Part shown: one piece after another, positions 18,489 through 49,100 of the stretch
Position numbering within the stretch: the stretch's first letter is position 1
How the letters are laid out: every line of letters starts with the position of its first letter
Virus record (IMG/VR): IMGVR_UViG_3300001336_000023
Location: 1 to 57,135 of that record
Strand: one strand, 5' to 3'
DNA length: 57,135 bases
Source: a virus
Taxonomy: Duplodnaviria; Caudoviricetes
Translations under genes and position numbers: made by a program
The notes under the pieces: generated by a model
Told to the model about the DNA's origin: nothing
Seen by the model: only the letters and a program-made list of their open reading frames with translations
The model's database searches: none

Positions 18489-18983
18489 ATGCCAAAATAC
18501 ACAGTAAACAATAAAGGCGCATACTACCTTGACAAAATGGCTGACGGAATTCAACGTTCAACCATCGCTCACGAAGAAGGAATCACAGAACAAGGAGTCT
18601 ACCTTTCGGTTTATGCCCTTATTAGAAACTCAAAGCTTAAAATCAAAGGGATGAAAATGCAAACAGACACAATCAACAAATTAGAAAAAGATTTATTTAA
18701 CGCAAGCAACCTCGTCAGCAGTCTTACAGCAGAACGAAACGACTTACGTAGAGAAGTAGAAAATTTAAAAGTACTAACCAAAGATGCAAAACCAAGTGAC
18801 ATTCAATTTGCTCGATTATCAGACAACAACAAAAAACTTATGGAAGCCAATAATGAACTACGAAAAGAACTTGCAAAAAAAGAAATACTACAACCTATAG
18901 AAAAACCACCAATAACATTCGCCAGCAACCAAGATAGACTTATTGATAGATTATTATCCATCATTGAAAAGGCGGTGGAATAA
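18489..18983 (+). CDS. Putative HTH plus coiled-coil protein
   Basis: STIAHEEGITEQGVY is HTH-like; central coiled coil; GAGGAGG RBS. Confidence 0.6.
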   Translation: MPKYTVNNKGAYYLDKMADGIQRSTIAHEEGITEQGVYLSVYALIRNSKLKIKGMKMQTDTINKLEKDLFNASNLVSSLTAERNDLRREVENLKVLTKDAKPSDIQFARLSDNNKKLMEANNELRKELAKKEILQPIEKPPITFASNQDRLIDRLLSIIEKAVE

Positions 18984-19162
18984 TGCCTAAAATTATAAAA
19001 TACAAATCATTCCCCATCAACCGTCTTGAAATACTTTTTTATAAACTCATCAGACACCACAAAACAATTCATGAAACAGATTCAATAGGAACCAAAATTA
19101 CCCGTAAAGGCATCATCAAAAAAAATCATTTATTTGTCTACGAAACTATCATTCACCAATAG
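18983..19162 (+). CDS. Small basic hypothetical protein (59 aa, not in ORF track)
   Basis: TAATG coupling to upstream gene, GGCGGTGG RBS-like site, MPKIIKYKSFP...ETIIHQ*. Confidence 0.6.
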   Translation: MPKIIKYKSFPINRLEILFYKLIRHHKTIHETDSIGTKITRKGIIKKNHLFVYETIIHQ

Positions 19163-19196
19163 ATAATGTATTATCTATTGGAAAGGAGGAAAATTT

Positions 19197-19625
19197 ATGG
19201 AAGAAAAATACTATCAAATGAAACAAAGACACCAAAAAGAATTTGACAATTTCCAAGGGATTGGATTTGCATTTAGTAACAAACAATTCGAAGAAATGTG
19301 TGAAAAATTAGGTGTTAAAACTGAAGAAGCAAATAAAAAAATTACAAGCATAGGTGCAGGAGCATTTATCCTTAAATATCGTGTAAATGCTTATGTAGAA
19401 TTGATCCAACGTGTAACAAAAGAAACAGAAGAAGCAATGAAAGACCCTGAATTTGCTTACGACGCTATTAATTATGAACTAGACAACCACGAATACTGTG
19501 TTACTTACGATGAAACAGAAGCCCTTGAAGCATTAAGTATCACTAATGAAATACTACAAGACAGTCCTATGTTACAAGAGCAACTGAAAAAAGCAAAGAA
19601 ACACCAACTAACAATCAGAAGTTAG
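19197..19625 (+). CDS. Conserved phage hypothetical protein
   Basis: FAFSNKQFEE...YELDNHEY motif; AAAGGAGG RBS. Confidence 0.8.
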   Translation: MEEKYYQMKQRHQKEFDNFQGIGFAFSNKQFEEMCEKLGVKTEEANKKITSIGAGAFILKYRVNAYVELIQRVTKETEEAMKDPEFAYDAINYELDNHEYCVTYDETEALEALSITNEILQDSPMLQEQLKKAKKHQLTIRS

Positions 19626-19669
19626 CGTCGGGGGGGCACTGTTGGCCCCGCGCCGTTAGGAGGTATATA

Positions 19670-20056
19670 ATGAAAGAAATCCATCATATCATGAAACAAA
19701 TCATTGCTATCCGCACTATTCGCAATGCTTTAAAAACAAACGGACGTGTACGTATTCCCCAAACATACCTCGGTATTTGGGCAGAACAATACTACACATA
19801 CTTCAAAAAAAGATTCCCAGCACTATACTTTGAAACTCAATCCATTTACATAAAAAATTTAATTTTGAATATCACTGAGCACATTTATATGGTACAATTA
19901 ATACGTCAAGGATTTTATCTTAATTCTAAAAATGAATTGAAGTATTGGAACATATTACCTGTACCTTATAAAGAAAATATCATTAAAAAATTAAAAAACA
20001 GCGGAATTGAAACACCGGACAATCTAATGGAAGGAGACTATGTATATGAAGTATAA
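19670..20056 (+). CDS. Hypothetical protein
   Basis: AGGAGGT RBS; 128 aa. Confidence 0.7.
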   Translation: MKEIHHIMKQIIAIRTIRNALKTNGRVRIPQTYLGIWAEQYYTYFKKRFPALYFETQSIYIKNLILNITEHIYMVQLIRQGFYLNSKNELKYWNILPVPYKENIIKKLKNSGIETPDNLMEGDYVYEV

Positions 20057-20393
20057 CATTACAATTGATCTCGATGAAACAATAGTATTTGCTAGAAAAA
20101 TGGCAAAAAGAGTAATCAAATCTTCTGAACAACAAACAAAACAACTCGCTAAAGAAATAGGAATTGATTTTAAAGGGATAGAAGATTTACCACCTACTAT
20201 TGAAATCTTTTTAAAAGAGGAATTAGACAATGCAAAAAAGAAATTAAACAAAGCAACACAAGAACAAATAACAGAAAATATTACAAACATTTTTAATCTT
20301 TCTATAACAGAAACAATTGTAAGCAAAACAGTCAATAAAAGTCTAGAACATTTAGAATTGTTATCAGAAAAAGAAGAAACACAAGCATCGTAA
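20040..20393 (+). CDS. Hypothetical protein
   Basis: AAGGAG RBS; helical, charged; start may be the second Met (20046). Confidence 0.7.
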   Translation: MYMKYNITIDLDETIVFARKMAKRVIKSSEQQTKQLAKEIGIDFKGIEDLPPTIEIFLKEELDNAKKKLNKATQEQITENITNIFNLSITETIVSKTVNKSLEHLELLSEKEETQAS

Positions 20394-20647
20394 GTGTATC
20401 TTCTATAGCACATCCTCAGCAATGTGTTATACAAGGTACATTTGTGTGTATCTACCATCCTAAGACATCTTTCTACAATAGAAAGGTGTCACCTAGAGAG
20501 AATGATAATGTCTGCGTAGTGTAACACAAATTATTATTATTCTTTCTAGGTGGCACGTTCACGGAGAACAATGTCACCCTGACACAACATGAATGTGTGT
20601 ATCAATCCACACATTCGCATCCCCTTCCTTATATGCTTATGCATATA

Positions 20648-20676
20648 TTGACTTGATTGATCCTGAGAGGGACAAT
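20648..20676 (+). promoter_or_regulatory. Putative sigmaA promoter upstream of the tRNA-like element
   Basis: TTGACT-17 nt-GACAAT; predicted start near 20683 coincides with the 5' arm of a 13-bp stem. Confidence 0.45.
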
Positions 20677-20738
20677 CGCCTCAGATAGGCTGTACATAAA
20701 AAATAAAACAAAAGTTGATTAGTGCAGTCTATCTACTT

Positions 20739-20851
20739 GGTTTCGTAGTGTTCAACGAAAGCACATCGTCCTAAAGTACTTACATATTGTGTCAACGTAA
20801 CACAGTAAGAGACAGTGAGCGAGAGTATAGGTTCAAATCCTATCGAAACCC
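20739..20851 (+). tRNA. tRNA-like RNA with ~40-nt hairpin insertion in the anticodon loop (identity undetermined)
   Basis: Acceptor GGTTTCG/CGAAACC, TA at 8-9, D-stem GTGT/GCAC, T-arm ATAGG-TTCAAAT-CCTAT; anticodon arm imperfect and interrupted; no encoded CCA. Confidence 0.65.
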
Positions 20852-21012
20852 CTATTAGTAGAGTATCTTAGCCTAGCATTTAACCCGAGACTTCACCCTT
20901 TTTTAAGTCTTATCCATTGCAAAAACTAAGCTACTCTAAACTACACCCCCGGCACTTGTGCGGGGGTTTTTATTATAAAATTTTATAAAAAAAAATAAGG
21001 AGGAAACAAAGT

Positions 21013-21411
21013 ATGAAAACAACATTATCACCATTTAGAAACATGAATGCATTTATGGTTACCTTTAAGTTTACAGGGAGAGAACTATTACAAGCATCAA
21101 GTAATAAACCTCAATCCTTAAAAATTCTTGACGAAAAAGGTAATGAAAATTATTGTTTGGTAAACGCATCAACAACAACTGCTGATACAGTAGGAGCATC
21201 ATTCCCATTTGCAGGACATGATGAAGACCAAGCAACAAAACCTGTAAGAGTATTATTTCAAATTGAAGGAAACACAGAGGACGTTGTAAAACTTAACGCC
21301 GCAAGAGTTATGACCAATCTGCAAGTAATCGAAGATCAAATCATTAAAGCCGCAAAAGAAGTACAAAAAACCATTGATTCAATCAAATTCGATGATGAAG
21401 GAGCTGAATAA
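21013..21411 (+). CDS. Hypothetical protein, first gene of Ubl cassette
   Basis: AAGGAGG RBS; 2 nt from the Ubl gene. Confidence 0.8.
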   Translation: MKTTLSPFRNMNAFMVTFKFTGRELLQASSNKPQSLKILDEKGNENYCLVNASTTTADTVGASFPFAGHDEDQATKPVRVLFQIEGNTEDVVKLNAARVMTNLQVIEDQIIKAAKEVQKTIDSIKFDDEGAE

Positions 21412-21413
21412 AT

Positions 21414-21638
21414 ATGTTTAGAGTTTATGTAGGTGTTCCTCAAAATGACAAATTAGTTACTGTTACAGGAGAAGAAACTGTTACAGAGTTATTAGAAAAA
21501 CAACAACTAAAAACTTCAGGATTAATCCAACACAACGGTGCTACTTTAAAAGCTCAAGACTTGGGTAAAAAACTTAAAGACATCGGATTTACTGAAGGAG
21601 ACATGTTGTACGTAGTTCAAAAATTAGATAATGCATAG
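21414..21638 (+). CDS. Ubiquitin-like (beta-grasp) protein
   Basis: 74 aa; beta-beta-helix pattern (ETVTELLEKQ), NGATL...GKKLKDIGFTEGDMLYVV parallels the ubiquitin GKQL..GRTLSDYNIQKESTLHLV pattern; adjacent to E2/JAB/E1 genes. Confidence 0.8.
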   Translation: MFRVYVGVPQNDKLVTVTGEETVTELLEKQQLKTSGLIQHNGATLKAQDLGKKLKDIGFTEGDMLYVVQKLDNA

Positions 21639-21665
21639 AAAAGAAGGACCCCCCTTCTTTTTTAT
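21638..21665 (+). terminator. Terminator/attenuator between Ubl and E2-like genes
   Basis: AAAAGAAGG-acccc-CCTTCTTTT followed by further Ts. Confidence 0.6.
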
Positions 21666-21686
21666 TTGTGAAAGGAGGGCGTTTAC

Positions 21687-22961
21687 ATGCCTAAAGTATT
21701 TGATTTAGTAGAGTATCATTTTAGTGATAGCAATATAGGGGTATACAACATAGTACTAAAAACAATTGTTCTATTATCTTCCCCTACCTTATTATCTTTT
21801 TTAGCATATCTAAAAAAAATAGAAAGCCGACCTTTTAAAGACCATAAAATGGTTAACATAGGTAGTGTTCTTAGAAGAAATTCTAACCAAATAGCGACTA
21901 CAGCATTGCACAACAATACCCTCGTACTAAATTTTGAAATGAACCAAGAAACAGTAATATATTACCAAACATTAGCAAAAGAAGTAGAAAAACAAACTTT
22001 TAAAGATCAAATAAGCACAATAGAAAGATTATGGGAAGAAGACGACCCAACCATACGCCATTTTAAAAATTATCCCTTTAAAGACATGTATAATATAGAC
22101 GATAAATTAAGAGACATCCCAGAATTTATCACTTTACCAGAAGCAATTAAATTAAGAATCATTAATCTTGAATTTTTACAAAATTACAACACTTTAGACC
22201 TTATAGATCCTAAAGAGTTGGAAAACCTCATTACTCAATTAACAAAAAATCGATTAAGCGAATTAGAAAAACAAGAAAAAAATATAGCTGATGATATAAG
22301 AAACAAAATACAAAAAATTGAACCGCTATATAGAGTCTTAGAAACAATCAATAAAGAAATAAATAATTTAATAAGTAAAGGAAGAGAAAAAATCCTAGAA
22401 GAACTATTACGTTACTTAAAACAAACAACTGACATAGAAAAAATTAATATAGCATCTAACACAATACACCTTATAACAACACCACTACTTCTAAATTTTG
22501 ATCAAGAAAAAGCCTTAAAATCACAACGTATCAAAGAACAAGTAAAAGAACACATCAAAAAAGAAGGAAAATTTGCAATAGGACGCTATACTATAACAAT
22601 TACTATGGAAAATAAGTTAGCTTTTATTGTAAAACCATTAAATTATCCACATATAAACAGACATATAAACATAGGTTGTTATGGACAAAGAGAGAAAGCA
22701 ATACAAGAAGCAAGACTAGAAGGAAATATAGCTCATCTTATTTCTCATCTTATTGCTGCACTCAAAGGCGCTACAGTAAATGACGGACCAGGAAATAACA
22801 CAATTAATGGTAGTATTTTTATTGAAAAAGACGGATTAAAGAATGTAGAAAATATAGGAAAAGTAAGTTTAAAAAGATACATAGATGAATATCTTAAAAA
22901 ACCAGATGCTAGATATACAACAGGTGAAACAACAATACCAGAAAGAGAGAACCCATTCTAA
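21687..22961 (+). CDS. Coiled-coil protein with C-terminal E2 (UBC)-like domain
   Basis: YPHINRHINIGCYG resembles the HPN/H...CLG active-site region of prokaryotic E2s, followed by two helices; its only Cys is here; context between Ubl and JAB. Confidence 0.6.
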   Translation: MPKVFDLVEYHFSDSNIGVYNIVLKTIVLLSSPTLLSFLAYLKKIESRPFKDHKMVNIGSVLRRNSNQIATTALHNNTLVLNFEMNQETVIYYQTLAKEVEKQTFKDQISTIERLWEEDDPTIRHFKNYPFKDMYNIDDKLRDIPEFITLPEAIKLRIINLEFLQNYNTLDLIDPKELENLITQLTKNRLSELEKQEKNIADDIRNKIQKIEPLYRVLETINKEINNLISKGREKILEELLRYLKQTTDIEKINIASNTIHLITTPLLLNFDQEKALKSQRIKEQVKEHIKKEGKFAIGRYTITITMENKLAFIVKPLNYPHINRHINIGCYGQREKAIQEARLEGNIAHLISHLIAALKGATVNDGPGNNTINGSIFIEKDGLKNVENIGKVSLKRYIDEYLKKPDARYTTGETTIPERENPF

Positions 22962-23560
22962 TGATGATACCAGAAGCATTATATCGTACAAAAGACTTAC
23001 AAAAAATTGTACAACCAAGAGTATTCATAACACCAAAAGCATTTACTGATTTACAAGCAATTATCCATAATGAAAGCAATGAAACTTTAATGACTGCATC
23101 AATAGAAAAAATAGAACAAAGCCACGAGTACTATATCACAAAAATCCATATACCCCCACAAACAGAAGTATCCAAAGCCCACGTCGAAACAGATGATGAA
23201 GAATATGGAAAATGGTTAATGACTTTTACAAGAGAACAAAGAAAGAAAATGAAATGCCATATTCATACACACCCTAGTATGGGAGTAACACCATCAGGAT
23301 TAGATACACACACTATATACGCTGTCATAGAGGATTTAGACGACTTTTATATCCAAGTAATATGTAATGAAGAACATAAATTTTATGTTGCAGTTTGGGA
23401 TATAAAAAATAACAGAATATTCAAAAATATTTGGTTAGAATTAGCAGGGAATAATTTAGTATCTTTTAACACAAAAGGCCCTTATGTACACAATATCTTT
23501 GAACAAGAACAACACAAAAAATTAAAAGAAGATTTAAAAAGCAAAATAAAAAATACCTAA
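22961..23560 (+). CDS. JAB/MPN+ metallo-isopeptidase
   Basis: HIHTHPSMGVTPSGLD = HxH-x7-S-x2-D, with upstream catalytic Glu (SNET). Confidence 0.9.
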   Translation: MMIPEALYRTKDLQKIVQPRVFITPKAFTDLQAIIHNESNETLMTASIEKIEQSHEYYITKIHIPPQTEVSKAHVETDDEEYGKWLMTFTREQRKKMKCHIHTHPSMGVTPSGLDTHTIYAVIEDLDDFYIQVICNEEHKFYVAVWDIKNNRIFKNIWLELAGNNLVSFNTKGPYVHNIFEQEQHKKLKEDLKSKIKNT

Positions 23561-23598
23561 AATTAATACAATTTATGGAAAACTAGGAGGTAAAACTT

Positions 23599-24258
23599 AT
23601 GGTAAATCTTAAAAGACAAAGTGAATTTTTCGATCCTATTGACAACAAAGAAGAAATACACATTATTGGAGTAGGTGCAGTAGGTTCCCACATTGCACAA
23701 AACTTAGCAAGACTAGGAATCAAAAGAATCCATATTTGGGACTTTGATGAAGTAGAAGATCATAACATACCGAATCAAATGTTCCGTCAAACAAATATAG
23801 GTACATTAAAAGTAGATGCAATAGAAAACTACTTAAAAGAAATCAACGAAGAAATCGAGGTGATAAAACATGAGAAATACATAGACGAACAAATTAACGG
23901 AATCATATTCAGTTGTGTAGATTCAATAGAAACAAGACGTATCATTTATACAAACAATGAATTTAACACAGATTTAAAAGCAGTATTCGATACAAGAATT
24001 GGATTAGACGACGGACAAATATTTAGTGCCGATTGGTCTAAAGGAAGTAACATCACAAATTTAATTAGTGTATCAGAATTTACGCATGATGAAGCAGAAA
24101 CAAAAGTATCTAGTTGTGGTAGTAAATTAACAGTATTACCTACTGTACAAACAGCCGCAACACTAGCTACATCAAATTTTATTAATTTCATTAAAACGAA
24201 AACTTTAAAAAACAATATTATTTTCAATGCATTTGATTTAACGATCAAAGCTTATTAG
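23599..24258 (+). CDS. E1-like ThiF/MoeB adenylyltransferase
   Basis: IIGVGAVGS, DFDEVEDHNIPNQ, KVDA, CVDS; candidate thioester Cys in SSCGS; no CxxC Zn pairs. Confidence 0.92.
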   Translation: MVNLKRQSEFFDPIDNKEEIHIIGVGAVGSHIAQNLARLGIKRIHIWDFDEVEDHNIPNQMFRQTNIGTLKVDAIENYLKEINEEIEVIKHEKYIDEQINGIIFSCVDSIETRRIIYTNNEFNTDLKAVFDTRIGLDDGQIFSADWSKGSNITNLISVSEFTHDEAETKVSSCGSKLTVLPTVQTAATLATSNFINFIKTKTLKNNIIFNAFDLTIKAY

Positions 24259-24700
24259 GCAAACTTAAGATTTATTACAAATCATAGTGTAAACTATAAC
24301 CCAAATACTAGATTAGGGGATATTCAAATGAGAAAACGCATATGGTGAAGAAAGAAACTGCACCACCGAACTTGGGAGAGTTTGGATCCAACCACTTAAT
24401 GGCGATTGCGCTGTTAAACAAAGTATCTAAACGACACAATAAGGTTAGTATAAGATGAAGTTAGCATGGCTGCAATAAGTTATAATTACCCATCTAGAAA
24501 ATGAATCAGAATTCTGTACGATGAGGAAATTGAAGAAAGTCTAGTTAATATAAGAATAAAAAAGATCTATATTAATTAAAATAGGTAAAAGCTTAGCCTG
24601 CGAGGAAGAGCTACAAATAGAGAAGTATAACTTATTAGAAACTAAAACACTAGATGCAACATAATTATAAAAGAACCTTCAAAAAACTTAAGAAATGAAT
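24259..24700 (+). ncRNA. Candidate retron-type ncRNA upstream of RT
   Basis: ~450 nt non-coding; hairpins TGGTG/CACCA, CCGAACT/AGTTTGG, TTAATGGCG/CGCTGTTAA; possible closing pair ATCATAGTGT (24281-24290) with ACACTAGAT (24647-24655). Confidence 0.55.
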
Positions 24701-24713
24701 AGGAGTATGCCAA

Positions 24714-26075
24714 ATGAAAACAAAATTTATTATAACCGTACCAAATAATAGAAACAAACACACAGGAGTATCAGCAAAACTAACACGCCCAACTCTTGAA
24801 GAAATACTACTGTATAACGCAAAAGATTTTTGGAAAACATTAAACTATTTACCTGATTATATATCTTATCAAAGAGAAATAGATGAACACAGGTATATTA
24901 AACAATATTTTCCTAGCAAAACAGTATTAACTGATTTATTTTATGCAGCATTCACACACGATGACCAAAAAACATCTAACCGCTTAAACCGTAAGCACAG
25001 CCGTTACGTAGAGCGTTATAATAGTTATGTATATATTACAAACCAATTAAAACCTTTTATTGAAAAAATGGAAAAATTCATTACAACAGATTTTATAAAC
25101 AATAAAAAAGACTATTATGATTATTGGGAAAAGAAAGAATACAAAGGAAAAGATGATGCAGGTAATGATATTTGGAAATACCGTATAATTCAACCACCTA
25201 AAGACGAACTCATGGATTTACATAAAGAAGCTAATCTTCTTTTTCAAAACACATTACAGATACACCCTCACGAAGCAGTTCACTCTTTTCGTAAAGCGCG
25301 TTCCCCTTATACCAATGCAAAAAGACACCAACAAAGTAAACATATTGTCAAAACAGACATCAAAGATTTTTATCCTAATATAACAAAGAAGTTTTTAAGA
25401 AAACAGTTGTGTTCTCTTAAAGAGTTTGCTATAATAGACACAACAACAGATAAATTGGCACCTGAACAACAAGATTATAAAAATACAATCACAAGATTTC
25501 TAGAAGGAATCGTTGAACTTGCAACACTAAATAATGAACTTCCTCAAGGTGCACCGTTATCGCCTTTACTATCAAATTTAGTATTCACACCTTATGACTT
25601 AGCCATCTATGACTACTTAGCAAATAAACCAAAAGAAATAAGTTCAACTTACGTAATGTATACACGTTATGCTGATGACTTATTCTTCTCTAGTCTACAT
25701 AAAATTGACAAAGGTGCACTTATTTTAAAAGTAAATCAAACTATTGCAGATTCAAATTTTACACTACATGAACGAAAAACAAAATACTTTAAAACAAAAC
25801 AAAGAGTATTTATTACGGGTGTTAAAATTAATCAAGAAAACAATTTAACTTATGGATATGAAAAAAAAGAAGATTTAAAAAAACGCATTTTTCAAACTTT
25901 AATTATCATTAAAAACAAACAAAATATAGACGAACACGAAGTACAAATGTTGATAGGTGATATCAGTTTTGCTAAAAGTATTGAACCTCAATACATTAAT
26001 AATGTAATAGCAAAATACGCTAGAAAATTCAATATCCCTGTACATCGTTTCTATAAACATTTGCTTCAAAAATAA
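24714..26075 (+). CDS. Retron-type reverse transcriptase
   Basis: YRIIQPP, NAKRH (retron region X NAxxH), TDIKDFYPNI, LPQGAPLSPLLSN, YTRYADDLFFS, ITGV (region Y VTG-like); ~150-aa N-terminal extension. Confidence 0.92.
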   Translation: MKTKFIITVPNNRNKHTGVSAKLTRPTLEEILLYNAKDFWKTLNYLPDYISYQREIDEHRYIKQYFPSKTVLTDLFYAAFTHDDQKTSNRLNRKHSRYVERYNSYVYITNQLKPFIEKMEKFITTDFINNKKDYYDYWEKKEYKGKDDAGNDIWKYRIIQPPKDELMDLHKEANLLFQNTLQIHPHEAVHSFRKARSPYTNAKRHQQSKHIVKTDIKDFYPNITKKFLRKQLCSLKEFAIIDTTTDKLAPEQQDYKNTITRFLEGIVELATLNNELPQGAPLSPLLSNLVFTPYDLAIYDYLANKPKEISSTYVMYTRYADDLFFSSLHKIDKGALILKVNQTIADSNFTLHERKTKYFKTKQRVFITGVKINQENNLTYGYEKKEDLKKRIFQTLIIIKNKQNIDEHEVQMLIGDISFAKSIEPQYINNVIAKYARKFNIPVHRFYKHLLQK

Positions 26076-26083
26076 AATAAAAA

Positions 26084-26414
26084 ATAAAATTGCTACAAAT
26101 CAGTCAAGTATAAGGTAGGAGAACTTAACCAAAGCAAAGCCGGTGTATGAACCGTCCCGAATTGCAGGGAAATGCATACTGACCTAGTTAAAATACTTTT
26201 ATACGCACCAAGACAACCCAACTACTAACAGTAGGGGATATCTAACAAAATACCATTAATGTATAGGGTAGAAGAAATCTCGACTAGAAAACTAATTTTT
26301 AGTGAGCTACAATTTCGGGATCAGGCTCTTCAAAAAAGAAAAGACTTCAGAGCTTGATCCCAAAATCGCACCGCACCAAAAATTAAACGTCTTGATATTT
26401 ATAAGCGATTTTAT
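26084..26414 (+). ncRNA. Candidate retron-type ncRNA downstream of RT
   Basis: Ends pair: ATAAAATTGCT (26084-26094) with AGCGATTTTAT (26404-26414), plus TCAAG/CTTGA; small 5' hairpins and a 13-bp 3' stem GGGATCAGGCTCT/AGAGCTTGATCCC (26317-26361). Confidence 0.6.
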
Positions 26415-26427
26415 AAGGAGGAACACC

Positions 26428-26892
26428 ATGAATAGAACATTTATCTTAAAAGACCCCGCAGAAAGTACAAAAAAACGAATGTGGGAAGTACAATTTTATC
26501 TTAATATGTTAGAACTTACAGGAGGTACTGTAAACGACTATTATGTGGATAACATTGTAGAAAACATTATGCTAAAAGCAGGAGCCAAAGTTAGTGTTTT
26601 AAACGTGGCTTATAGTGAACTAAGTGGTCGAGTAAATCGTCCTAGTCCATTAGAGCTTATTATGGCTAACCATTATCTAGACATTCCTGTAAGGTCAATT
26701 ACAGCAGTAACACATACTGCAAACCGTACTTTATACAATGCTTTAGAAACTTATATCAAAAATGGAGACTATGATTTACACCCAAAACTTGATGAAAACA
26801 CATTATTAGAGATCAAAAAATTCAATGAATCAATTAGATACATTTTCCCACACATATCAAAACTAGCAAGCAAAGGAGTATGTTATGATTGA
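26428..26892 (+). CDS. Hypothetical protein
   Basis: AAGGAGG RBS supports ATG 26428 rather than GTG 26302. Confidence 0.75.
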   Translation: MNRTFILKDPAESTKKRMWEVQFYLNMLELTGGTVNDYYVDNIVENIMLKAGAKVSVLNVAYSELSGRVNRPSPLELIMANHYLDIPVRSITAVTHTANRTLYNALETYIKNGDYDLHPKLDENTLLEIKKFNESIRYIFPHISKLASKGVCYD

Positions 26893-27364
26893 TTTAAAAG
26901 AGTTTAATCCCGAAACAGAAAAACCACTCTATGAAGCAGTATTAAACTTCAATGAAGAATTTGCAAAAGATTCAGCAATCATGACTTTAGGGTATTATGA
27001 ACTTTATAAAAGATTTAAAAACCGTACTTCATTAACAGCAATCGATTGGAGAAACTTCTATAGAGATAAACGTGTTCAAAACTTCTATAACGATGAACTA
27101 AACATGCAACTTGAAGTAAAAATCCAAAAGTTATCTCATAGTAGTGATTTGTCCACAAGTGATAACACCACCCTGACAAATCTAATTAAACGTAAACGTG
27201 ATGAAGAAGGAATCAATGCTGATGACGGAAAAATCTTTGTATATACTTTCATACCACTAACTTCAGAAGAGGAGAATGCAGAAAATGTCAAAATCTTATC
27301 ATTTGTCCCTAAAGAGATTAAAGGTGCCATACACGTTCTTGAAGGGAATAAAAACAAAAAATAA
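26885..27364 (+). CDS. Hypothetical protein
   Basis: AAAGGAG RBS, overlaps upstream stop; 159 aa. Confidence 0.75.
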   Translation: MIDLKEFNPETEKPLYEAVLNFNEEFAKDSAIMTLGYYELYKRFKNRTSLTAIDWRNFYRDKRVQNFYNDELNMQLEVKIQKLSHSSDLSTSDNTTLTNLIKRKRDEEGINADDGKIFVYTFIPLTSEEENAENVKILSFVPKEIKGAIHVLEGNKNKK

Positions 27365-28934
27365 GTTAGAAGTATTCCCAGCATCACCAACCATCGTTAA
27401 AATCTTGGTAGATGATAAGGCACTTGCTTCACATTTTATGCAACAAAGAAAAGCGTTACTGAACAAGAAAAAGAATCATACAAATGCACCCATCTATGAT
27501 GAAAGATTACGCCCCTACCAAAATGCCGAAGTAGATTTTCTGATAAACTTCAAAAAAGGTAAAGGCGTTTTTGATCAACAAAGAGTAGGAAAGACGCCAA
27601 TAACCTTAGTGACTATGCGTGAACTCAATCAAAACAAATGCCTTATTCTAGTTCCTAAATCTAATATTCATAAATGGATACAAGAGTACAAGAAATGGCA
27701 CGGAGGACCTTGCTACACTACAACCGATTGGTATCCCCCACAACGAAGAAAAGAAGAGTACAGCCAAAATTTAGGCACTTTAATTACAAACTACGAAAAA
27801 CTCATCCAAGACTATGATGAAATCATCGAAAGTTTTGGTTCTTTTGATGCCATAATTGTCGATGAAGCCCATATGCTAAGAAATTATAAAGGTCTTAGTT
27901 TCAAAATTAGTGGAAAAGATAAAGAAGATAACCCAATTAAAAAATACAAAAGCCCCGAAGTAACAAGAGCAATTATGGAAACTAGGTCACTAGCGAAGGA
28001 TGCCTACGCTTTAACAGGTACACCTGCACCTACAGCCCAACATAATGTTTTTGGTATTTTGGCTTTTTTATTTCCCGATTTATTCAGTAGTTACAACAAA
28101 GCAATGAATTATTATTTCAATAGAAAAACCTTTGATTTAAAAGACCAAAACATCAAATTTAGTACGATTGGAAAGTTCCAAAACAAGTTCAAAGAAAAAG
28201 AATTTGTCGAATTTTTAGAAACATTTTCCGTTCAAACAAAACGTAAAGACGTAATGAAATGGATTCCTGAAGTAGATGAAGAAATTTTCATTTTAGAACC
28301 TAGTCCAAATGTGGTAAAATGGCATGAGGAACTTCATAAATATTTTGAAACAGAAGATATTATTTGTCCCGACCAATTATCTGTTATGACTAGAGAAAGG
28401 CAACTATCAACATATCCACGTATTCTAGGATTAAACGACGACGGCCCGAAATTCAAATGGATAAAAAACCACATCAAAGATTACCCGAACACCCCCTTGA
28501 TAATCGCGGGGGCGTTTACTGAAATACTCAAAGCCTTACAAACCTATTTAAAAGATGATAAAAGAGTCAGAATTATGCATGGTGGTACTTCTTCTAAAAA
28601 TAGAAAAAAATTAGAAGACGACTTTCAAGCAGGAGAATACGATATTTTAATTGGAAATATCAAAGTTATTTCTCTAGGATTAACTTTATCTAGAGCAGAA
28701 GAAATTATTCTTTTAGATCCGTCTTTAACACAAGCAGACAACGAACAAGTATTAGACCGTTTTATCCCCACGACCCCTGAAGAAGCAGAAGCCAAAGAAG
28801 GGCAAACCATCATTCGTTTACTTAGTAAAGACACCATTGATGAATATATCGCTAAACAACTGCAAAGACGAAAAACAGAAAACGATATCATCAATGATTA
28901 TACAAGGACTTTAATAAAACATGCCAAACTCTAG
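27276..28934 (+). CDS. SNF2-family (SF2) helicase/ATPase
   Basis: LRPYQ, DQQRVGKT, IIVDEAH, LTGTP, GLTLSRA, EQVLDR; start uncertain. Confidence 0.9.
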   Translation: MQKMSKSYHLSLKRLKVPYTFLKGIKTKNKLEVFPASPTIVKILVDDKALASHFMQQRKALLNKKKNHTNAPIYDERLRPYQNAEVDFLINFKKGKGVFDQQRVGKTPITLVTMRELNQNKCLILVPKSNIHKWIQEYKKWHGGPCYTTTDWYPPQRRKEEYSQNLGTLITNYEKLIQDYDEIIESFGSFDAIIVDEAHMLRNYKGLSFKISGKDKEDNPIKKYKSPEVTRAIMETRSLAKDAYALTGTPAPTAQHNVFGILAFLFPDLFSSYNKAMNYYFNRKTFDLKDQNIKFSTIGKFQNKFKEKEFVEFLETFSVQTKRKDVMKWIPEVDEEIFILEPSPNVVKWHEELHKYFETEDIICPDQLSVMTRERQLSTYPRILGLNDDGPKFKWIKNHIKDYPNTPLIIAGAFTEILKALQTYLKDDKRVRIMHGGTSSKNRKKLEDDFQAGEYDILIGNIKVISLGLTLSRAEEIILLDPSLTQADNEQVLDRFIPTTPEEAEAKEGQTIIRLLSKDTIDEYIAKQLQRRKTENDIINDYTRTLIKHAKL

Positions 28935-40119: not shown

Positions 40120-43100
40120 CTAGCGTCGATACGGATGCTGTGTTTCTGCCCAGCGATATCTCGTTTTGTCCATTGGGCTATATTGTAGGTGTCCATATGC
40201 ACGGAAGGATGTACGTTCTGAGTTCGTAGGTTTTGCAAAGTTTGCATTTCTTGAAAGAAAAGCTGTTCTAGGATAAGCACTACGTCCTCCGTAGTAAGGG
40301 TCCACCAGACTAGGGAATATGTTGTCTAGACTTTTTGCGTTCCCTGATGCTACGTTTGCTATGTTCTTTACTTGATTTAGCCCTGGACTTCTCATGATTC
40401 TGTCTTGTGTATCTAAGTCAGAGTCCGGTGTGATTCGTGTTGACATGTTTCTAATTAATGGGTTAATCTTTCTAACCAATTGATCAGGTATTCCTGTTTG
40501 TTTTTGCATACCTGTAAAGGTTAATGCGTCTGCAAATGTGAATCCTGTTTGTAAAGCATAATTACCAATAGGGATATTCCCTCGTGACATTTGATATTGT
40601 GCGTAATCATTGTCGTCTATTTCGTCTCCCCAAGCGAGAAGCATTGCTTTAGAAAGAGTTCTTGCAGTTACTGCATCTTGGTAAAACGCTTCGTTCCAAA
40701 ACTCAATACTTCGGATTGGATAAGATACGAATGGAATAACCATCTCAGCCCATACTTCTGCTTGTGTTTTGTTTGCGTAGTTGAAGTGGGTCTTGAGTAT
40801 TTTGTTCAACGATTCATTGACTGTGAGTCCTTTACGTATATCATTGATGTGTAATCCTAGACGTCCTACAGTTTCTGACCAACCATTGATTTGTAAATTT
40901 GCTCCCCATGGTGTGTATTTTCCATATAGACCTTTTGTGTAGGCTTTCATAATTAAAGAGTCTTGTCCTTGGCCAATAATCCCTTGACGCATGTGCATCA
41001 TCATTTGATGAGCCTCGCTTGCTGCTGCCGGTGTACTGACAAAGTCATCTACAAATTTTGTAATTTCTAAGTCTTCTAATTCTTTTGCACTGAATGTGTG
41101 CCCTTGTTTTGTTTTTGCTTCAATGAGTAAGTCTATCCAACTTATTGCATAGTCTTTTTTCCTTGCGGAATAACTTACTAATTCTGCTGCTTCATTATAA
41201 TATTTTGTATAAGTGTTGTGCCAACGCATAGCAACAAATGTATCATACCATACTGACACAGGAGCAAGTACTCCTCCTTCTGCCGCAACTACATTCTTTA
41301 AGTTAATATCAAAGAAGTTGTTTGTGAAGAAATTGACTGTTGTAAGTGAGAATACTTTTAATGGCATAATTAAGCCTTTATGTATTGCTTTTGCTAGAGG
41401 GTTACTCAGTTGATATTTTTGTTTTGTTACACGTTCTAATTCATGGATGCTGTGTTGGTCTAGTACACCCATAGGTAACATCTCTGTATGTGCGCCTATT
41501 CCCCAATCACTTACGTCTGCACGTTTTAGAGCAATGTCTAAAGCGTCTGTTTTTGAGTTTGCACGGAGTAGGTTGTCTAGTTCCATGATATGTTCTACTT
41601 TTGGGTTGTGTACTCTACGCACTGCGTACCCTGATTTTACTCCTTCGTCTTTCACAAGCATTACAACATCATGACCTGCTTTTCTTATATACTTTAAGAA
41701 TTCTTTTGCTCCTTCTCTTCCTTCGCCATACTGTGTACGTATGTGTCTGTAACTGTCACTGAAAGATTTTTGGATATTGTCAATTGTTTGTGCTTTAGTG
41801 TATTTGAATACTTCACTCTCTTTGATGACCCCTGTTTCATACCCTTTAGATAAGGCTTCATAATATTTTTGATCATAAGACCCTGTTAAGTAATCATAAT
41901 AAGTGGCATAGATTCTTTTTTCAAATTCTATATAAGCGTCTGGATCAACCATTTCGCCACCTTGTTTTGTTTTTAAGTATCCTTTATAAGGGTCTCCTCC
42001 CCATTCTCGAATTGGTGCAAACTTTTCATTTAGTTCTTTAAAGTAAGGGTCGTCTACGGCTAATAAGTTTCTCATAATGTCTGCTTTGATATTACGTCCT
42101 TTTGTATTAGCACGATTGCTATATGCAAAGCGCATGATGTCTTCAGGGTCTCCTAAGTTTTCTAATAAGCGATGCATGATTTTTAGTTCAGGACGATTGT
42201 CTTGGTAAGGTATCGCATCTTCGACTGTCTTTGTAATATCATCACTAAATAACATATTCATTAAACGTGTTATTGATCTTTGTGTTCGGCTGTAGTCTGT
42301 TAAGCGTAAAACACTTGCACTACCTTTACGTGCCAAGTCTCCAATATTCACTATGTCTGCGAAGTACTCCGGATTCTCTACACCAATTTCTTTTGGTAAG
42401 CTTCCTTTTTTCAATCCTTCTTGGATTCCTCGGATATAGGCTTTCCATTCTCCTACTTGTACAGGGTTGAGTTCTGATGCAGCATTTTTGTACTTGATAT
42501 CTCTTAATGGTTTACGGATATTTTCCATTGCGCCATGAATGATTTCTGACAACTCTTGGTAAATGATACTTGCTTTTTGTTGTGCAGCATAATCCATAGT
42601 ATTCGTTTCAAAGAATGCTGTAGGGTCTAAGATAGACTGTTTCATTACTTCGTATAACCTGTTCGTATACTTTGTTGTAGGGTTGAGCATTATTGCTTCT
42701 TCAGGGAATCCTCTATCCTTTAGACTACGTATTCTACGCTGTATGTAGGTGTAGAACTCTTGTAGGGCACTGTTCGATAAATGGTCTTCGTCAAACTTAC
42801 TGATCATTTTGTTCGCTTCAGTACCCTTCATGATTTTTATAAAGTCTGTAAATGATTCAAATTCTGAAAACTCAGATACATTTCCTTTTAATAATTGTTG
42901 TCTGTGGTTTCTTATTTTTTTGTTTAACACTTTATCAACGTTGTACATTAAATCGTACATATCGTGATAAATAATCCTTGATCCTAAAGGCCCTTTAAAA
43001 TAAGCTTTATTGCTATCCAAAGTTTCTTTAGTGCGCAAGATTTCGAATATTCTTTCTTGGGTTTTTGTGTAGTCATTTGTCGCCTCCATATTTTCTATTA

Positions 43101-46100
43101 ATTTTGTTAGTGGGTCTTCTTTGAAGTTTGCTTTAAATGAACGTACAAGACCTTTACCTTTTATCTTAGGGTCCACACTGTGTTTAATAATTCCATCGTG
43201 TTGCGCTTGGATTAATTTTTGGTACATATATTCCCTAAAGAAAGCAGACATACGTTGATCGGCTGAGCTGCCTTCTATTCCTTCTTGTAAGACCGCATTT
43301 TGTATACGGTGGTATTCTTCGTTTTTTGTAAATTCGTTGAGGATGCTTATGTGATTCTTCATAGCGGAGTCTTGTAACACTGCAACTTCATTACCATATT
43401 GATAAGATAATTGTTCTGCATAATGTTCTGATTGTTTCTTTGTCAATCCATTAGGCCCTAATATTTTTTCGTCGATAGTCGTACGTAAATCTTCTAATAA
43501 GCGTAATGAGTCTTCTTCTAAAGAATATGTATCATCTAATGCAGAAAGACCTAGACTGTCTAATTTTGCATGTACACGTCCTAGAAGTCCTTCTACTCTT
43601 GTAGCTTCTTGATGTAAAGACTGTAGGCTAAGTATTTGTCTTTCACGCATCGCAGTAATATCTCCTTCACGAACAATGCGAATTGTTTTGTTTAGTTGTT
43701 TACGTAAGTCTTCACGGAACTCTAATAATTCACTGATATCTTCTACTAGTATATCAATATCGGTTCGCGCGTTAATGATACCCTTTTCGAGAAGGTCGTT
43801 GTATACTTCATCAACACGGTAATAGTCTTCAACCTTTTGGCGTATAGTTTGACTTGTTCCATCTAAGTCAGGGATATCAATGTATTTTTCATAGGCTACA
43901 CTATCACCTAACTCATCTGCGATATCCTGCATCATATCAATAATATCTTCGCTATACCCTTCACGTCCTGCAATGTTAAGCTCTTCTAAATCTTTTGCAT
44001 TTAGGTAATTCTTAGCCATACTATACTGTCCTTCAGTGGCTGCCATTTCTGCTATGTCATCTACGCCTGAGTCTGCTCCATAGAGTAATCTGTAAGTTAT
44101 TTCTGCATCATATGCAGCATTGTGGAAGTAGGACTTGCCATCTGGACGTGCGTTTGTTTTTACACCTTGTGCTAATTTGTTTAGTATTGTATCATCATAA
44201 GCTCGTTGAGCAATATCTTTTAATCCGCTTTTACCACCTTTTGAATTGATGCGGAAAATTGGTAAAGTATCAAATATGTATTTATCTTTGATCCCTAATT
44301 TGAAAAGCATGTTCGCATCATGTTTTGCATTTTGTGCAATAACGACATCAATATCTTTTAAAAGTTCTTGCACTTTTCCGCTTACGATATCAAATTCTTC
44401 TGCAACATCTTCATAATGCATAGGGTCAATCCCTGTAAATTCAAAGAAGTAATCTCCGTGATTGTATTTCTTTTTTACTTTAGCAAAAAATTCATGACGT
44501 TCTACCTTAATTGTTCCGTCAGGTAATTTACGTCTTACGACTAAAGCTATTTGTGTAGGGTGTTTAACATTAGGATCGGGGTCCGGCATATCTTCCATGT
44601 CTAGTGTTGCAGTATTGTAATCATAAAGATCGCCCTCTAAAGTTTTGTTTGAGTATTTCCCATCACTATCTAAGTAAGTCATAATAGATGGCGGTTCTTC
44701 TACTTTGTGTCTATAGAACCCTCCTACGTATGTGTTTGTTGTGTATTCATCAATGTTGTTGTGCATCGTGTTAAATATTCCTTCTTTAGAGAAAGGGCCA
44801 CGTTGTCCTTCTAGTTGACTGCTGACCTCGTGAATCTTTTTCCCATCTACCATTTCTGTAGTAATGTTTAGGCTTAATGCGTTTTGGTCTTTTTTAAGAA
44901 GCGTAAATACTTCTTCAAATTGTTCTGTAACATACAGGTCTCTAAAAGTTTCGATTTCACGCATCATGTCTTCTGTACCTTTATATTTGTTCAAGATAAT
45001 TTCACGTGCTTTAGCTTCTCTTGGTGTTGTCATATCTTCTATAGTTTTTAAACGTTCAGCGAGTTCGTCTAAACTTTTGTTGTATTTTTGTACTCGTTTA
45101 AAACGACGCAATAATTCAGGACTGAACTCTGCGATAATATCTTCAGGGATATGTTTATGTAAATCTAAAGTGTAAAAGTCTTCTTGAAAGATTGGGCGTA
45201 AAATACGTCTAGCAAAAGCTTCGATTGCTTCAGCAGTATGCATTCCTCCGAGGCTTGCTTGTTTTTTCATATTGTCAATAACGTTAAACATTTGCCTTAT
45301 TTCAAACTTGTATAATATACCTTTAGTTAAAGGGACATCATCATTAATGAAGATCGATGCATTGATAAAGTCTTCAGGGCTACTGTCCTTACTCATAAGA
45401 ATACGTTCGATTTCTTTTTTTGGGTCATCTTGCATACTGTATAGTTTTACTTTACGGAAAAGTTCTCTTGTTTCTTTTGTATGCAATCTCTTATATAGTA
45501 ATTCTTGGTCTTGTATTTGACGATATAGTTGCGTGTGTTCATTTGCAATTTTGTAAAATGTCGTATGTACTTGTTCGTTTACTTTTTCTAAGAAACGGTA
45601 CAAAGTTAAATCAGTGATTTCTACATCGATATCTTTTGCTCCAGCATATTCTTCAAATGAACGGCGTAACTTATTAATAATGTCTTCCATTTTCCCAAAG
45701 TCTTGACGTTCTGTTTGAATTGCTTTGATGATATCATCTATTGCTAATCGATGCTGTATGTAGTTTTGTCCTTCTAACTGATCAAGGTGTTTTGTAATTT
45801 TAGTATTTTTTATACGACGTTTAACTTTTGTAAAACTTTGCCCAAGTCCTACTGTACGTAATTCTGTGATCAAATTATTGACAGTATTGTGTACACTAAT
45901 AATGAGTTGTTCGATTTCAGAAGGAGTTCCAGCATTTTTATAAGCAACGTTTCCTAAAGAATCTATAGGTCTTATGTGGTGCTTGTAACCTAAGTTTCTT
46001 AATACGTTTTTCCCTACACGTAAATTGGCTATAACTTGAGCAAACATGTTTCCGTTGTGTAAATCTTTTACATAGTACAACATATCTTGTGTAGACATAC

Positions 46101-49100
46101 TTGCAACAAGTTCCGTGTTTAATCCTTCAAATAGTTTCCCCCATATACCTTTATCTGTTTTATTATAAGTTTCTTTTGCTTCTGCAATAGCAGCTTTCCC
46201 AACATCTGTCATGTCATCTGCGTAACGTACTTCGCGTTCTAGTATAGTTTTATACGCTGTGAATGCATCTTCAAAAACTTTGTACTCTTCCATTTGACTA
46301 GCGTTTAAACCATCAGGTCCTTTATTCAGTAATGTCATAAGGAATTGTCCTGCTGCTTTCTTATCTCCCATAATTCCTTCAGTATAGTCTAAGTACAGTC
46401 TGCTTGCACTCTTGTAGTTCATGTATATAATATCTTCTGCTTGATTACGTCCTGCTATATATTTCCCTGTGCGAATTTTTTCAAAGAAATTAATATTTTG
46501 TTGTAAAGTTTTAAATATTTTTGCACTAGGAGCACTTTCAGTAAACTTTTTACTCATAAAGTCTTTCATAAAATTGGCCAATGCATTTTTTGCGTTTTCT
46601 TCTTTTTTGATTTCTTCTGTAAGTTCTTTAATTACCTTTTCATTTTTTGTGTATTCTTTCCCCTTGTTTATCTTTTGTGCTTCAAAACTTTCTTTAAGTT
46701 TCTTTGCATCATTCAAACGAGACTCCAATCCTTCTATCGTTAAGTCCCCTTGTTTAGTGTAAAATATCTCGATATCTTTTGCCGCTTGGAGGATGATATC
46801 TTCTGTGTACATATTCCCCTTCAATGCTTCTTTTAAAATTTTTGTATGTAGATCATCATACAGTTTTCTTTGCATTGTAATATCGTAGTCTAGTCCTTCA
46901 AAACGGTTATTGAGATTGTCTATTAAGCGAATAGCGTCTTTGTATTCTTCTATCATTTCTTTACGCCCATCAGCAGCAATGAAACGTTTAAGGTCTTCTA
47001 TTCTTTTGAAACGTTTGTGGATTTCTTTTAAACGTGCTTCATTGTTTTTGATGAATTTATAATAGTCTTCGATGTATGTATCTGCAAGCGCACGAAAAGC
47101 ACGGTAAGTATTTTCATTACCGGGGCGTTTTAAAAAGGCAATAAGAAAGTCCGCTTGTTGAGTATTCGTTGTAAGGACTTCCAAAACATCTAGAATTTGT
47201 TTAGCGAAATTGTATTCGCGTTCTAAATTCTTTTTTAAAGACATTGCTTTACTTAAAACTTCAGAACCTTTTTTCTCTGTTTCGTCTAAACGTTTTAGAT
47301 GTTCTCCTGCTTCACGTATTTCAGTAGTATATTTTTTCAACCCCTCTTCGTTTGCACGAGATAAGAGACGTTTTGTTGCAGCAGTATCTCCATACTTTTT
47401 AATGTGTGCGTTGATACCTGCAATAGTTTGTTGTACTTGTTTCTCAAGACCTTCAGTCTGGTTACTCTTTAAAAGAGCATCTTCGTATGCACGTTGTTCT
47501 TGTAACAGCTTAACATACTCTTCGGTTTCTTTGTTGAAGTCTTCTCCTGCATCCATACGTCGATTGAAGTTATCTAATAAATTTGTACGTTCTGCTTCCA
47601 TTTGACTAAGGGATTTTTCAAAACTATAAATTTCTTGATTTGCTGTTTGTACTTGTTTAGAATTTTGTACGTTAAGTTCACGTGTACGGTATTCTCTTAA
47701 TAAAGATTCGCGTTCTTGTACTTTACCAAATCGATAATTTCTAAGGCTTTGTCCTTCTTCAATCTTTAAATCTTTACGCATTTGTGCTATACGTTTTGTG
47801 TGTCTATCGATTTCTTTTGCACGAGCGTTAGGGATATTGATATAATCCTCATATATTTTTAACTGTTCTTGTAGTCGCTCTCTACGTTTGAGGATGTCAT
47901 AAATAAGCTCATTATGTTTAAAGGCTTCGTATCTATCTTTAAGAAAAGCAAGATCTTTCTTTGGCTCTTTAAGAGCTTTTTCTATAAGTTCTTTTTTCTT
48001 TTCCATACTCTTAGGCACTTTACGTTTTTTCCATTTTTTCATTTGTTCATGATGTTCTTTTAGTGCTCTTTCATACTCATCGACAGTTTCTTGTGTTTGG
48101 TCTATTGCGTTGCGATAATATTTTGCCGTAACCGCATCATCAGGATTATACTCTGCACCATTATAGTATTCTAGCTCATCATTTGCTTCAGCTAATTGTT
48201 GTTTTATTTTATCTATATTATGCTTAGGGTTTGTGTTTTCTAAACGTAATTTATCTATACTTAGCTCGTACTCTAATGTGTGTATTCGTTCTGACGCTAA
48301 AAGGTCCGCCGCATAAGAACGATCAAAAACTTCTAAACCAGTTGTATAATTTCCTCGTTGTGCTCCAATGTCTTGGATTCTAATATCATACAATTCTTCT
48401 AACTCTGCGATCGTACGTTTATTTTTTTCTATCTCACGAGCCTTTTGGATTTGTAGGTCTTCAATTCTCTTCAATTCTGATTCACTAGGTGCTTCTGCTT
48501 TTTTTAAAGCGTCTTGTAAGTTAATTATCTCTTTCTCTTTAGCAGCGATACTTTCTCTTTGATGCCCAATACGGCTGTACGTTTGTCTTATTTCAAGACG
48601 GACTTCAGGATCATATTTGTTTATATCAAAATTGACTAGACGACTTTTTAAATTCGCTAATCGTTTTTCTTTTTCAGCAATAGCAACTTCCATACCTTTA
48701 CGGTAACTTGCGTGTTTTACACTCTCTAAACTTGCTTTTGTTTTTTCTAACTCTTCAAGTTCGTCTAAACGTTCAATAAGGTTTTCCATTTTTGTAACAC
48801 GTAAATCGAGACTTTCTTTTTCCAACTCATGATGGTCTTTTAAAACACGGATGATGTCGTCTCTTGCAACGATGCTTCTTTCTAAAGCGTCTTTTGTTTC
48901 AGATATACGTGCTTCTATTTCGATTTCTTCTTGTACTAAATCTAGATTAGAATGTTCTTTTGTCATTTTTGCTTTTTTATCTGCAATACGTTTTAATTCT
49001 TTTTCATACGTTTTGATATCTTTCTTTGCTTTTGTAACACGTGCAACACTTTCTTTTTGTTTAATAAGAACTTCTACTTCACGGTACGATATAAACGCTT

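Follow-up and report, generated by a model that had tools for sequence, protein, structure and literature searches.

A candidate retron-type RNA module downstream of a phage-borne, retron-clade reverse transcriptase

We studied a structured spacer downstream of a reverse transcriptase (RT) gene in the IMG/VR virus record IMGVR_UViG_3300001336_000023, a complete virus record of 57,135 bp with 36% G+C, the whole of which is referred to below as the window. The element in question lies at positions 26084-26414 (331 nt) in the 352-nt spacer between the RT gene and the gene at 26428-26892. It lies 9 nt past the RT stop codon at one end and 1 nt short of the ribosome-binding site (RBS) of the following gene at the other. 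We conclude with moderate confidence that 26084-26414 is a divergent, extra retron-type non-coding RNA (ncRNA) module of this phage-borne, retron-clade RT. Relatives of the phage carry covarying modules on both sides of the RT gene, and a downstream retron-type ncRNA is thus a real feature of this phage RT family. We infer that the window element is homologous to those family modules.

Judged by its amino acid sequence, the RT is a member of the retron clade. The best 25 of its 49 PADLOC matches were all to retron RT models (3e-41 to 2e-27). Its best NCBIfam match was retron_St85_RT (2.3e-46, 158 bits), with far weaker scores for group II (6e-15), Drt3a (6e-12) and Drt2 (5e-11) models. As 158 bits falls short of the curated cutoff of 235 for the St85 model, the assignment holds at the level of the clade and the enzyme stands outside any named retron family. 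In an alignment of 15 RT sequences N201-A202-K-R-H205, Y319-A-D321-D322 and I367-T368-G369 were conserved. NAXXH and VTG are given as retron-specific RT motifs in Mestre 2020 (PMC7736814), and the ITG triplet of the window RT differs from the retron VTG by a conservative V to I change. The enzyme looks catalytically intact. The nearest proteins to it were only 36-41% identical, and among INPHARED phages its matches were only distant (<30% identity). No closer relative was found in IMG/VR with the single RT protein or a 4-sequence RT profile as query, nor with the 154-amino acid (aa) protein of the next gene. Scans for closer relatives gave one short contig from metagenomes (L082) and one useful contig from genomes (L083); L-numbers denote loci of relatives.

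The downstream spacer (26076-26427) was predicted to fold at -77.1 kcal/mol, compared with -58.6 +/- 5.2 for dinucleotide shuffles (z -3.55), and none of 100 shuffles was as good. A first-pass annotation of the window had described here an a1/a2-like closing stem with inner extensions, small 5' hairpins and a 13-pair 3' stem, the layout of a retron ncRNA, and all of these stems are present (Table 1). The closing stem comprises 11 pairs, one of them U.G. It is extended inwards by AAAT (26097-26100) with ATTT (26397-26400) and by TCAAG (26104-26108) with CTTGA (26391-26395). The small hairpin stems pair CGGT (26141-44) with ACCG (26151-54) and TCCC (26155-58) with GGGA (26167-70). Both main stems held up in the fold ensemble and are common to the minimum free energy (MFE) and centroid structures. 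Pair probability was 0.97 for the closing stem in the spacer alone or with flanks of ~16-50 nt, 0.99 for the 13-pair hairpin in all three sequence contexts, and only ~0.25 for the two inner extensions. The 13-pair stem includes one G.U pair and so is fully paired only as plus-strand RNA. No T run follows this hairpin and no terminator was called there.

An RT profile search of IMG/VR yielded at least 550 related stretches confirmed by tblastn, from which 80 loci were kept. A ThiF/E1 gene lay upstream of the RT in 72 of the 80 viral loci, the other eight being mostly short of upstream sequence, and in relatives ThiF is preceded by a JAB-like gene. The order at the window locus, JAB-ThiF-spacer-RT-spacer-154aa-159aa-SNF2, is conserved; in a clade of ~50-kb phages the RT is followed by the 154-aa and 159-aa genes, SNF2 and a 325-aa gene. 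These conserved neighbours mark the RT as a syntenic core gene of the phage group, as opposed to a sporadic island. In the relatives, 230-460 nt of non-coding sequence separate ThiF from the RT, and the gaps that come after the RT often hold transfer RNA (tRNA) genes (10 of 12 loci scanned).

The gaps around the RT in relatives contain structured, covarying RNA modules. Eight downstream spacers of a rumen clade share a 41-pair consensus fold in which 18 pairs are changed on both sides, one closing-stem pair splitting UA:4 / CG:4. Its closing stem begins at the RT stop codon and reaches almost to the next RBS, stopping a few bases short of it; the fold also has two small hairpins and a long covarying one, the latter in a position that matches that of the window's 13-pair hairpin. 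Across the wider family the 5' domain consists of a1 (often ...TGTAAT), a G, CAT(A/T), hairpins P1 and P2, the motif GTAACAA(A/C)TTG and a purine-rich run. In 29 sequences all seven pairs of P2 showed compensatory changes. Two covariance models were used, R1 for the rumen-clade downstream module and R2 for the 5' domain, the latter built from 29 modules.

At E<=1, R2 gave 88 matches in 66 sources, all on the RT strand, and at E<=0.01 it gave 63 matches in 34 loci, counts that include the 29 seed sequences, which match by construction. At the stricter threshold all 34 loci had a match at most 560 nt upstream of the RT, and 14 of the 34 had one at most 550 nt downstream as well; 12 matches lay 0.55-4 kb from the RT. 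In five whole contigs (15-85 kb) all 16 matches clustered within ~7 kb around the RT, indicating that the modules are linked to this gene and are not general intergenic elements. Two to five copies occur per locus in relatives, on both sides of the RT.

The modules are bounded as retron ncRNAs are, by closing stems that are particular to each module. A stem of at least 8 pairs with the signature a1-G ... AG-a2 was found in 41 of 62 modules, against 23 of 496 head/tail-swapped controls. When the flanking bases were left unconstrained, 48 of the 62 had a perfect stem of at least 8 pairs, the stem sequence varying by locus. In 44 of these 48 the base directly 3' of a1 was G, and in 44 the base directly 5' of a2 was G (AG 37, TG 7). 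With the RT stop as the only anchor, the closing signature was present in 32 of 66 non-redundant loci compared with 104 of 2215 random anchors. Median module length was 319 nt (196-410). An RBS and start codon followed a2 within 45 nt in 32 of 48 modules (21/25 upstream modules, 11/23 others); for random positions the figure was 127 of 1240. Closing repeats whose sequence is free, a conserved G at their inner end, hairpins on the 5' side and a variable 3' part make up the plan of retron ncRNAs, which is here multiplied and set on either side of the RT. At the level of the family, the evidence is good that a syntenic phage RT is surrounded by arrays of retron-like, covarying modules.

The two closest loci have modules directly downstream of the RT. 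In L082, whose RT C-terminus is 39% identical to that of the window, the 411-nt post-RT spacer folds with z -7.3 into two closed domains, with one and the same small hairpin in each. Domain two runs up to the RBS of a gene whose product is 33% identical to that of 26428-26892 (E 1e-27). In L083 (35% identical), a 700-nt post-RT spacer (1360-2058) holds three tandem modules with conserved ends and compensated closing stems, which differ in their long G+C-rich hairpins.

Some features of individual relatives were also recorded. Modules 1 and 2 of L083 are separated by pyrimidine-rich sequence with an 11-bp inverted repeat closing it (~1562-1642); the contig belongs to an archaeal metagenome-assembled genome bin and has phage-like content. 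L014:4340-4800 and L017:4346-4800 are ~96% identical in the ThiF 3' end, the 5' domain and 3' end of the module and the RT 5' end, and the cores of their upstream modules (~160 nt) are wholly unrelated, forming a hypervariable cassette. L070 carries an exact direct repeat of at least 300 nt (4161-4460 and 5911-6210, 1750 nt apart) by which the same module flanks the RT on both sides; this could be a real duplication or an assembly effect. In L056, L024, L023, L053 and L022 up to 13 tRNA genes are interleaved with RNA modules downstream of the RT. These frequently include a tRNA-Gln (ttg), and in L056 ARAGORN also calls a single transfer-messenger RNA.

The window element resembles the family modules in several respects. 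Its length is near the family median, and its junction takes the relaxed form ATAAAATT-G ... AAG-C-GATTTTAT, an offset form shared with L082. Aligned by eye, its a1 and a2 match up with the arms of L082 module 1, both members of three pairs being changed. The downstream retron ncRNA proposed in the first-pass annotation accordingly stands in part: a retron-clade RT, downstream modules in relatives and the same layout, length and position speak for it.

A series of results weighs against this assignment. Model R1, which finds its own clade together with L035 and L026, had no match in the window at E<=10, and R2 run on the whole window had none at E<=1. With filters off, R2 scored 3.6-6.3 bits inside the element (E 1.3-4.7), which is not significant, and its family-wide counts are raised by its own seed sequences. 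The family hairpins P1 and P2 are absent from the downstream element. The strict signature a1-G ... AG-a2 is likewise lacking in the window, where the AG is offset by one base, and the candidate G26092 that follows ATAAAATT can pair with C26406 inside the helix, with two more pairs beyond it. An nhmmer search with both window spacers against the 80 loci returned nothing. All-versus-all blastn linked the window to the loci only via ThiF, SNF2 and other coding similarity, with no link in the spacers. With flanks of ~100 nt the closing-stem probability dropped to 0.23, and a pairing of 26362-69 with 26405-12 reached 0.47. PADLOC retron effector models matched none of the RT neighbours (ThiF/E1, JAB-like protein, two small proteins, SNF2 helicase). 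Finally, when the 35 nt after the RT stop were compared by RNAduplex with 5' segments of other loci, they had no better partner downstream (window z +0.7); over all loci the same closing-stem test gave a mean z of -0.30, with 4 of 66 below -2. By energy alone the closing stem is thus not beyond chance, and position and the comparison with relatives carry the weight.

The spacer upstream of the RT bears on the identity of the downstream element. The first-pass annotation had overlooked 24218-24713, which is probably an ncRNA module in the canonical position; the downstream element would then be an additional copy. The best partner for the a1 of the upstream spacer is 24529-24536 (8 pairs, one G.U). 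This spacer carries TACAAATCA at 24276 and an AACCC..GGGGATAT hairpin at 24298-24323, and counterparts of both lie in the downstream spacer. When the two spacers of the window are compared, the hairpin gives the highest-scoring local alignment (15.5, a score reached by 9 of 1000 dinucleotide shuffles), and the exact 10-mer TAGGGGATAT is confined to the two spacer hairpins within the 57 kb. The 9-mer TACAAATCA resembles the GTAACAA(A/C)TTG motif that follows hairpin P2 in the family. On its own it shows no enrichment across the window (30 matches with at most one mismatch, 34.5 expected); what matters is that it sits close to the 5' end of each spacer flanking the RT. Alignment of the whole upstream spacer with the downstream one was no better than for shuffles. 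The sub-domain 26108-26204 (~97 nt) is without a counterpart in the upstream spacer and so looks like an insertion between shared motifs. We read the downstream element as a reduced paralogue of the upstream module.

Table 1. Features of the RT locus in the window, with positions, strand and remarks.
Feature	Position	Strand	Remarks
Upstream spacer, probable canonical-position ncRNA module	24218..24713	+	Fold z -2.05; helix pair probabilities 0.67-1.0
TTTTCAAT-G-CATT and hairpin	24218-24264	+	Overlaps ThiF 3' end; model R2 9.7 bits, E 0.25, not significant
Long-range helix covering the RT RBS	24258-24276 / 24694-24711	+	Predicted fold
RT gene	24714..26075	+	453 aa, retron clade, N-terminal extension of ~150 aa; Pfam RVT_1
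a1-like 5' arm of closing stem, ATAAAATTGCT	26084..26094	+	G26092 is the candidate priming G
TACAAATCA motif	26094..26102	+	Second copy at 24276-24284 in the upstream spacer
Closed sub-domain GUAUAAGG / ACUUUUAUAC	26108..26204	+	MFE structures; encloses hairpins 26141-26154 and 26155-26170
Hairpin AACCC...GGGGATAT	26215..26241	+	Putatively paralogous to 24298-24323 in the upstream spacer
13-pair hairpin with 19-nt A-rich loop, msd-like	26317..26361	+	Arms 26317-26329 / 26349-26361; 42 nt before a2
AAAATCGC, alternative a2 partner	26362..26369	+	From sequence; pairs with 26405-12
a2-like 3' arm of closing stem, AGCGATTTTAT	26404..26414	+	Preceded by TTTATAAG
RBS AAGGAGG and gene (154 aa)	26416..26892	+	RBS 26416-26422, 5 nt before ATG 26428; gene 26428-26892

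As a retron-type module, the element would be transcribed on the plus strand within the transcript that runs from the RT to the next gene. Pairing of a1 with a2 would bring G26092, the G at the stem's inner end, next to the template's 3' terminus. If it works as retron RTs do, the enzyme would then use G26092 as its priming site and make a single-stranded DNA copy of the sequence 5' of a2, the 13-pair hairpin included. Since a2 ends 1 nt before the RBS, the module would also be the leader of gene 26428, and complementary DNA (cDNA) synthesis or RT binding could affect expression of that gene.

The position of a2 is also what would be expected of an RT-independent structured leader or intercistronic element, acting as an mRNA processing or stability site or as the leader of gene 26428 and never reverse-transcribed. 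We consider this unlikely. The abutting RBS, the RBS that follows a2 at no more than 45 nt in 32 of the 48 family modules, and the absence from the window element of P1 and P2, which would be the likeliest RT-recognition part, would all suit such a leader. It would further fit the location of the spacer inside a transcript, here a polycistronic early one, which is indicated by the lack of terminator or promoter signals. It leaves aside, however, the confinement of modules in the five whole contigs to ~7 kb around the RT, with none at other intergenic sites. A leader also has no need of the G 3' of a1 and the G 5' of a2, each present in 44 of 48 modules and matching retron priming geometry, and wholesale replacement of the central part between near-identical phages would be unusual for one. 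A terminator or promoter reading was rejected, as no terminator was found in 23500-27500 and sigma-70-type sites occurred at shuffle level (18 vs 19.8).

It is quite unlikely, in our view, that only the upstream ncRNA is real and that the downstream element is a decayed remnant of a module or of tRNA genes, or a set of fortuitous stems in AT-rich DNA. The non-significant duplex-energy control, the silence of the covariance models inside the element and the missing P1 and P2 would be in keeping with decay or chance. So would the placement of R2 matches, universal upstream and seen downstream in only 14 of 34 loci. The tRNA genes of relatives, often at this same position, have no equivalent in the window, where ARAGORN found none. 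Against this, the fold z of -3.55 with no shuffle as good and the 0.99 probability of the 13-pair hairpin are difficult to ascribe to accident, as is the motif sharing with the upstream spacer at a score reached by 9 of 1000 shuffles. The L082 spacer at the same place is even more structured (z -7.3) and its arms align with those of the window. Rfam gave no tRNA-like match in 26076-26427. At gathering thresholds Rfam had no match anywhere in the window. At E<=5 over 18900-27500 it had none in the RT-flanking spacers, the only matches being to tRNA at 20739-20851 and weakly to DUF2815 RNA at 20175-20232 (22 bits, E 1.8).

A further possibility, compatible with the element being a retron-type module, is that it acts as a conformational switch. 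The first-pass annotation had noted that the 3' arm of the closing stem can pair instead with 26362-26369 and that it ends beside the RBS of gene 26428, and both observations are borne out. In such a switch a2 would toggle between a1 (26084-94) and AAAATCGC (26362-69), with RT or cDNA setting translation of gene 26428; we judge this improbable. Each pairing is perfect or nearly so, and which of them is the more probable depends on context: 0.97 and 0.00 in the spacer alone, 0.23 and 0.47 with ~100-nt flanks. Addition of 50 nt of coding sequence left the RBS unpaired with a probability of only 0.12-0.18 at 4 of its 7 bases, and the Retron-Vpa2 hyRNA (bioRxiv 10.1101/2025.10.22.683967) offers a precedent. 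Neither pairing, however, covers the RBS. In the fold of the spacer alone its unpaired probability was 0.83-1.0, which gives no sign of sequestration, and the inverted repeats described for Vpa2 enclose the effector RBS and coding sequence, whereas a2 here lies 5' of the RBS. The competing pairing is seen in silico, and the adjacency of a2 and RBS is a family trait.

Barely credible is a coding origin of the spacer, with GTG 26302 starting a longer 26428 protein or with a small open reading frame (ORF) in the spacer: GTG 26302 is in frame and open through 26892, and a 32-aa ORF lies at 26259-26357, but the strong RBS AAGGAGG stands 5 nt before ATG 26428, the extension would cross the 13-pair hairpin, and it is not conserved, homologues in L082 and L083 beginning at the aligned Met, which in L082 is preceded by a stop.

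The protein encoded after the module belongs to a conserved family. Searching with the 154-aa protein, jackhmmer retrieved 39 ORFs in the loci, and an alignment of the family has an invariant R17, starts that match ATG 26428 and a helix-turn-helix-like centre. The family is all-alpha and is conserved after the downstream module. A structural model (predicted local distance difference test score, pLDDT, 88) found no clear fold match in the PDB (Foldseek E>=0.36, VIA-align Z<=4.0). A second small conserved protein is encoded after the module at 26885-27364.

Retrons are known from bacteria as defences against phages, with a single template RNA that precedes the RT gene. In Mestre 2020 (PMC7736814) and the SPIRE survey (PMC13712802), retron ncRNAs are located or searched upstream of the RT, the two surveys examining the upstream 300-600 nt in the parts that deal with this. 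The window locus is like the bacterial retrons of types I-XIII described in PMC7736814 in having a retron-clade RT with NAxxH, YADD and (V/I)TG and an adjacent ncRNA on the same strand. The family's variable inverted repeats, the conserved G at the inner end of the 5' arm, the order of small 5' hairpins followed by a long variable 3' hairpin, and a 3' arm just before the RBS of a gene are further likenesses. Unlike bacterial retrons, copies here lie on both sides of the RT, with two to five per locus in relatives, and the phage RT has a conserved place among the core genes of the early/replication region and is not part of a defence island. No known retron effector adjoins it, and the window's downstream copy differs by its missing P1 and P2 and by the G inside the helix.

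Retron-Vpa2 (type VI) offers a second comparison. As far as the account in bioRxiv 10.1101/2025.10.22.683967 was covered, its hyRNA is linked to an effector that msDNA (multicopy single-stranded DNA) derepresses. Like the window locus as proposed here, it has one structured transcript joining the RT template and the following coding sequence, long-range inverted repeats, a proposed link between cDNA synthesis and translation, and a helix-rich small protein encoded alongside. The Vpa2 repeats wrap the effector RBS and coding sequence and its RT gene lies downstream, whereas in the phage a2 is 5' of the RBS, the RT gene is upstream and the 154-aa protein is without a recognised family.

Virus-encoded RT clusters share ancestry with bacterial retron RTs according to a survey in hLife 2024 (PMC13681634), and the window RT family is presumably among its viral retron-like clades. 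The passages of that survey covered here contain no ncRNA, synteny or module analysis. Diversity-generating retroelements (DGRs) of phages likewise combine a phage-encoded RT with a nearby non-coding template region. The window RT, by contrast, lies outside the DGR clade and has no template/variable repeat pair. A sensitive blastn of both spacers against the window returned only self-matches and short chance matches, and as neither spacer has a second copy in the 57 kb, a DGR was excluded. In the parts of the literature that our search reached, we found no description of multi-copy RT-flanking ncRNA modules with phage-encoded retron-clade RTs.

We tentatively raise a broader possibility, in which we place limited confidence. 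In a tailed-phage group of at least 550 IMG/VR stretches, a core retron-clade RT may serve two to five interchangeable template RNAs on both of its sides, each the leader of the next gene and each with a swappable central cassette. The resulting repertoire of RT-made DNA (RT-DNA) would benefit the phage, and the window's downstream element would be one extra template. If so, the RT-DNAs might, for example, act against host defences as decoys or guides, or set the timing of early gene expression. This would be the first retron-type system working for a virus rather than against one and would raise the question of what a virus does with retron DNA. It would also provide natural multi-template retron architectures that may be of interest in retron-based DNA production. 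For annotation, the long "empty" spacers on both sides of phage RT genes would then merit module scans, and not the upstream spacer alone.

The RT locus lies in the plus-strand early/replication block of the phage, which encodes an SNF2 helicase, a primase-helicase, a family A DNA polymerase and a RecE-like exonuclease; the portal, major head and tail-fibre genes are on the minus strand. A search of sequencing runs found the window sequence in one DNA sequencing run, probably of the source sample, with no RNA run among those listed. Directly 5' of the RT module, 21414-24258 encodes a 74-aa protein, a 424-aa protein without family, a weakly JAB-like protein and a ThiF/E1-like adenylyltransferase. 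This block looks like a phage-carried ubiquitin-like conjugation set; the C-terminus of the 74-aa protein is not GG. The tRNA-model match at 20739-20851 scored 32.1 bits (gathering score 29; E 0.0011) over 113 nt and contains a TPsiC-like GGTTCAAATCC. It was missed by ARAGORN and by the gathering-mode Rfam scan, and could represent either a tRNA carrying an insertion or an element that resembles tRNA. At ~20948-20975 a strong hairpin precedes a T run. On the minus strand, 40120-50349 is a single 3409-aa ORF without a PHROG match at 1e-5, of a size that we take to be reminiscent of the giant virion proteins of some podoviruses.

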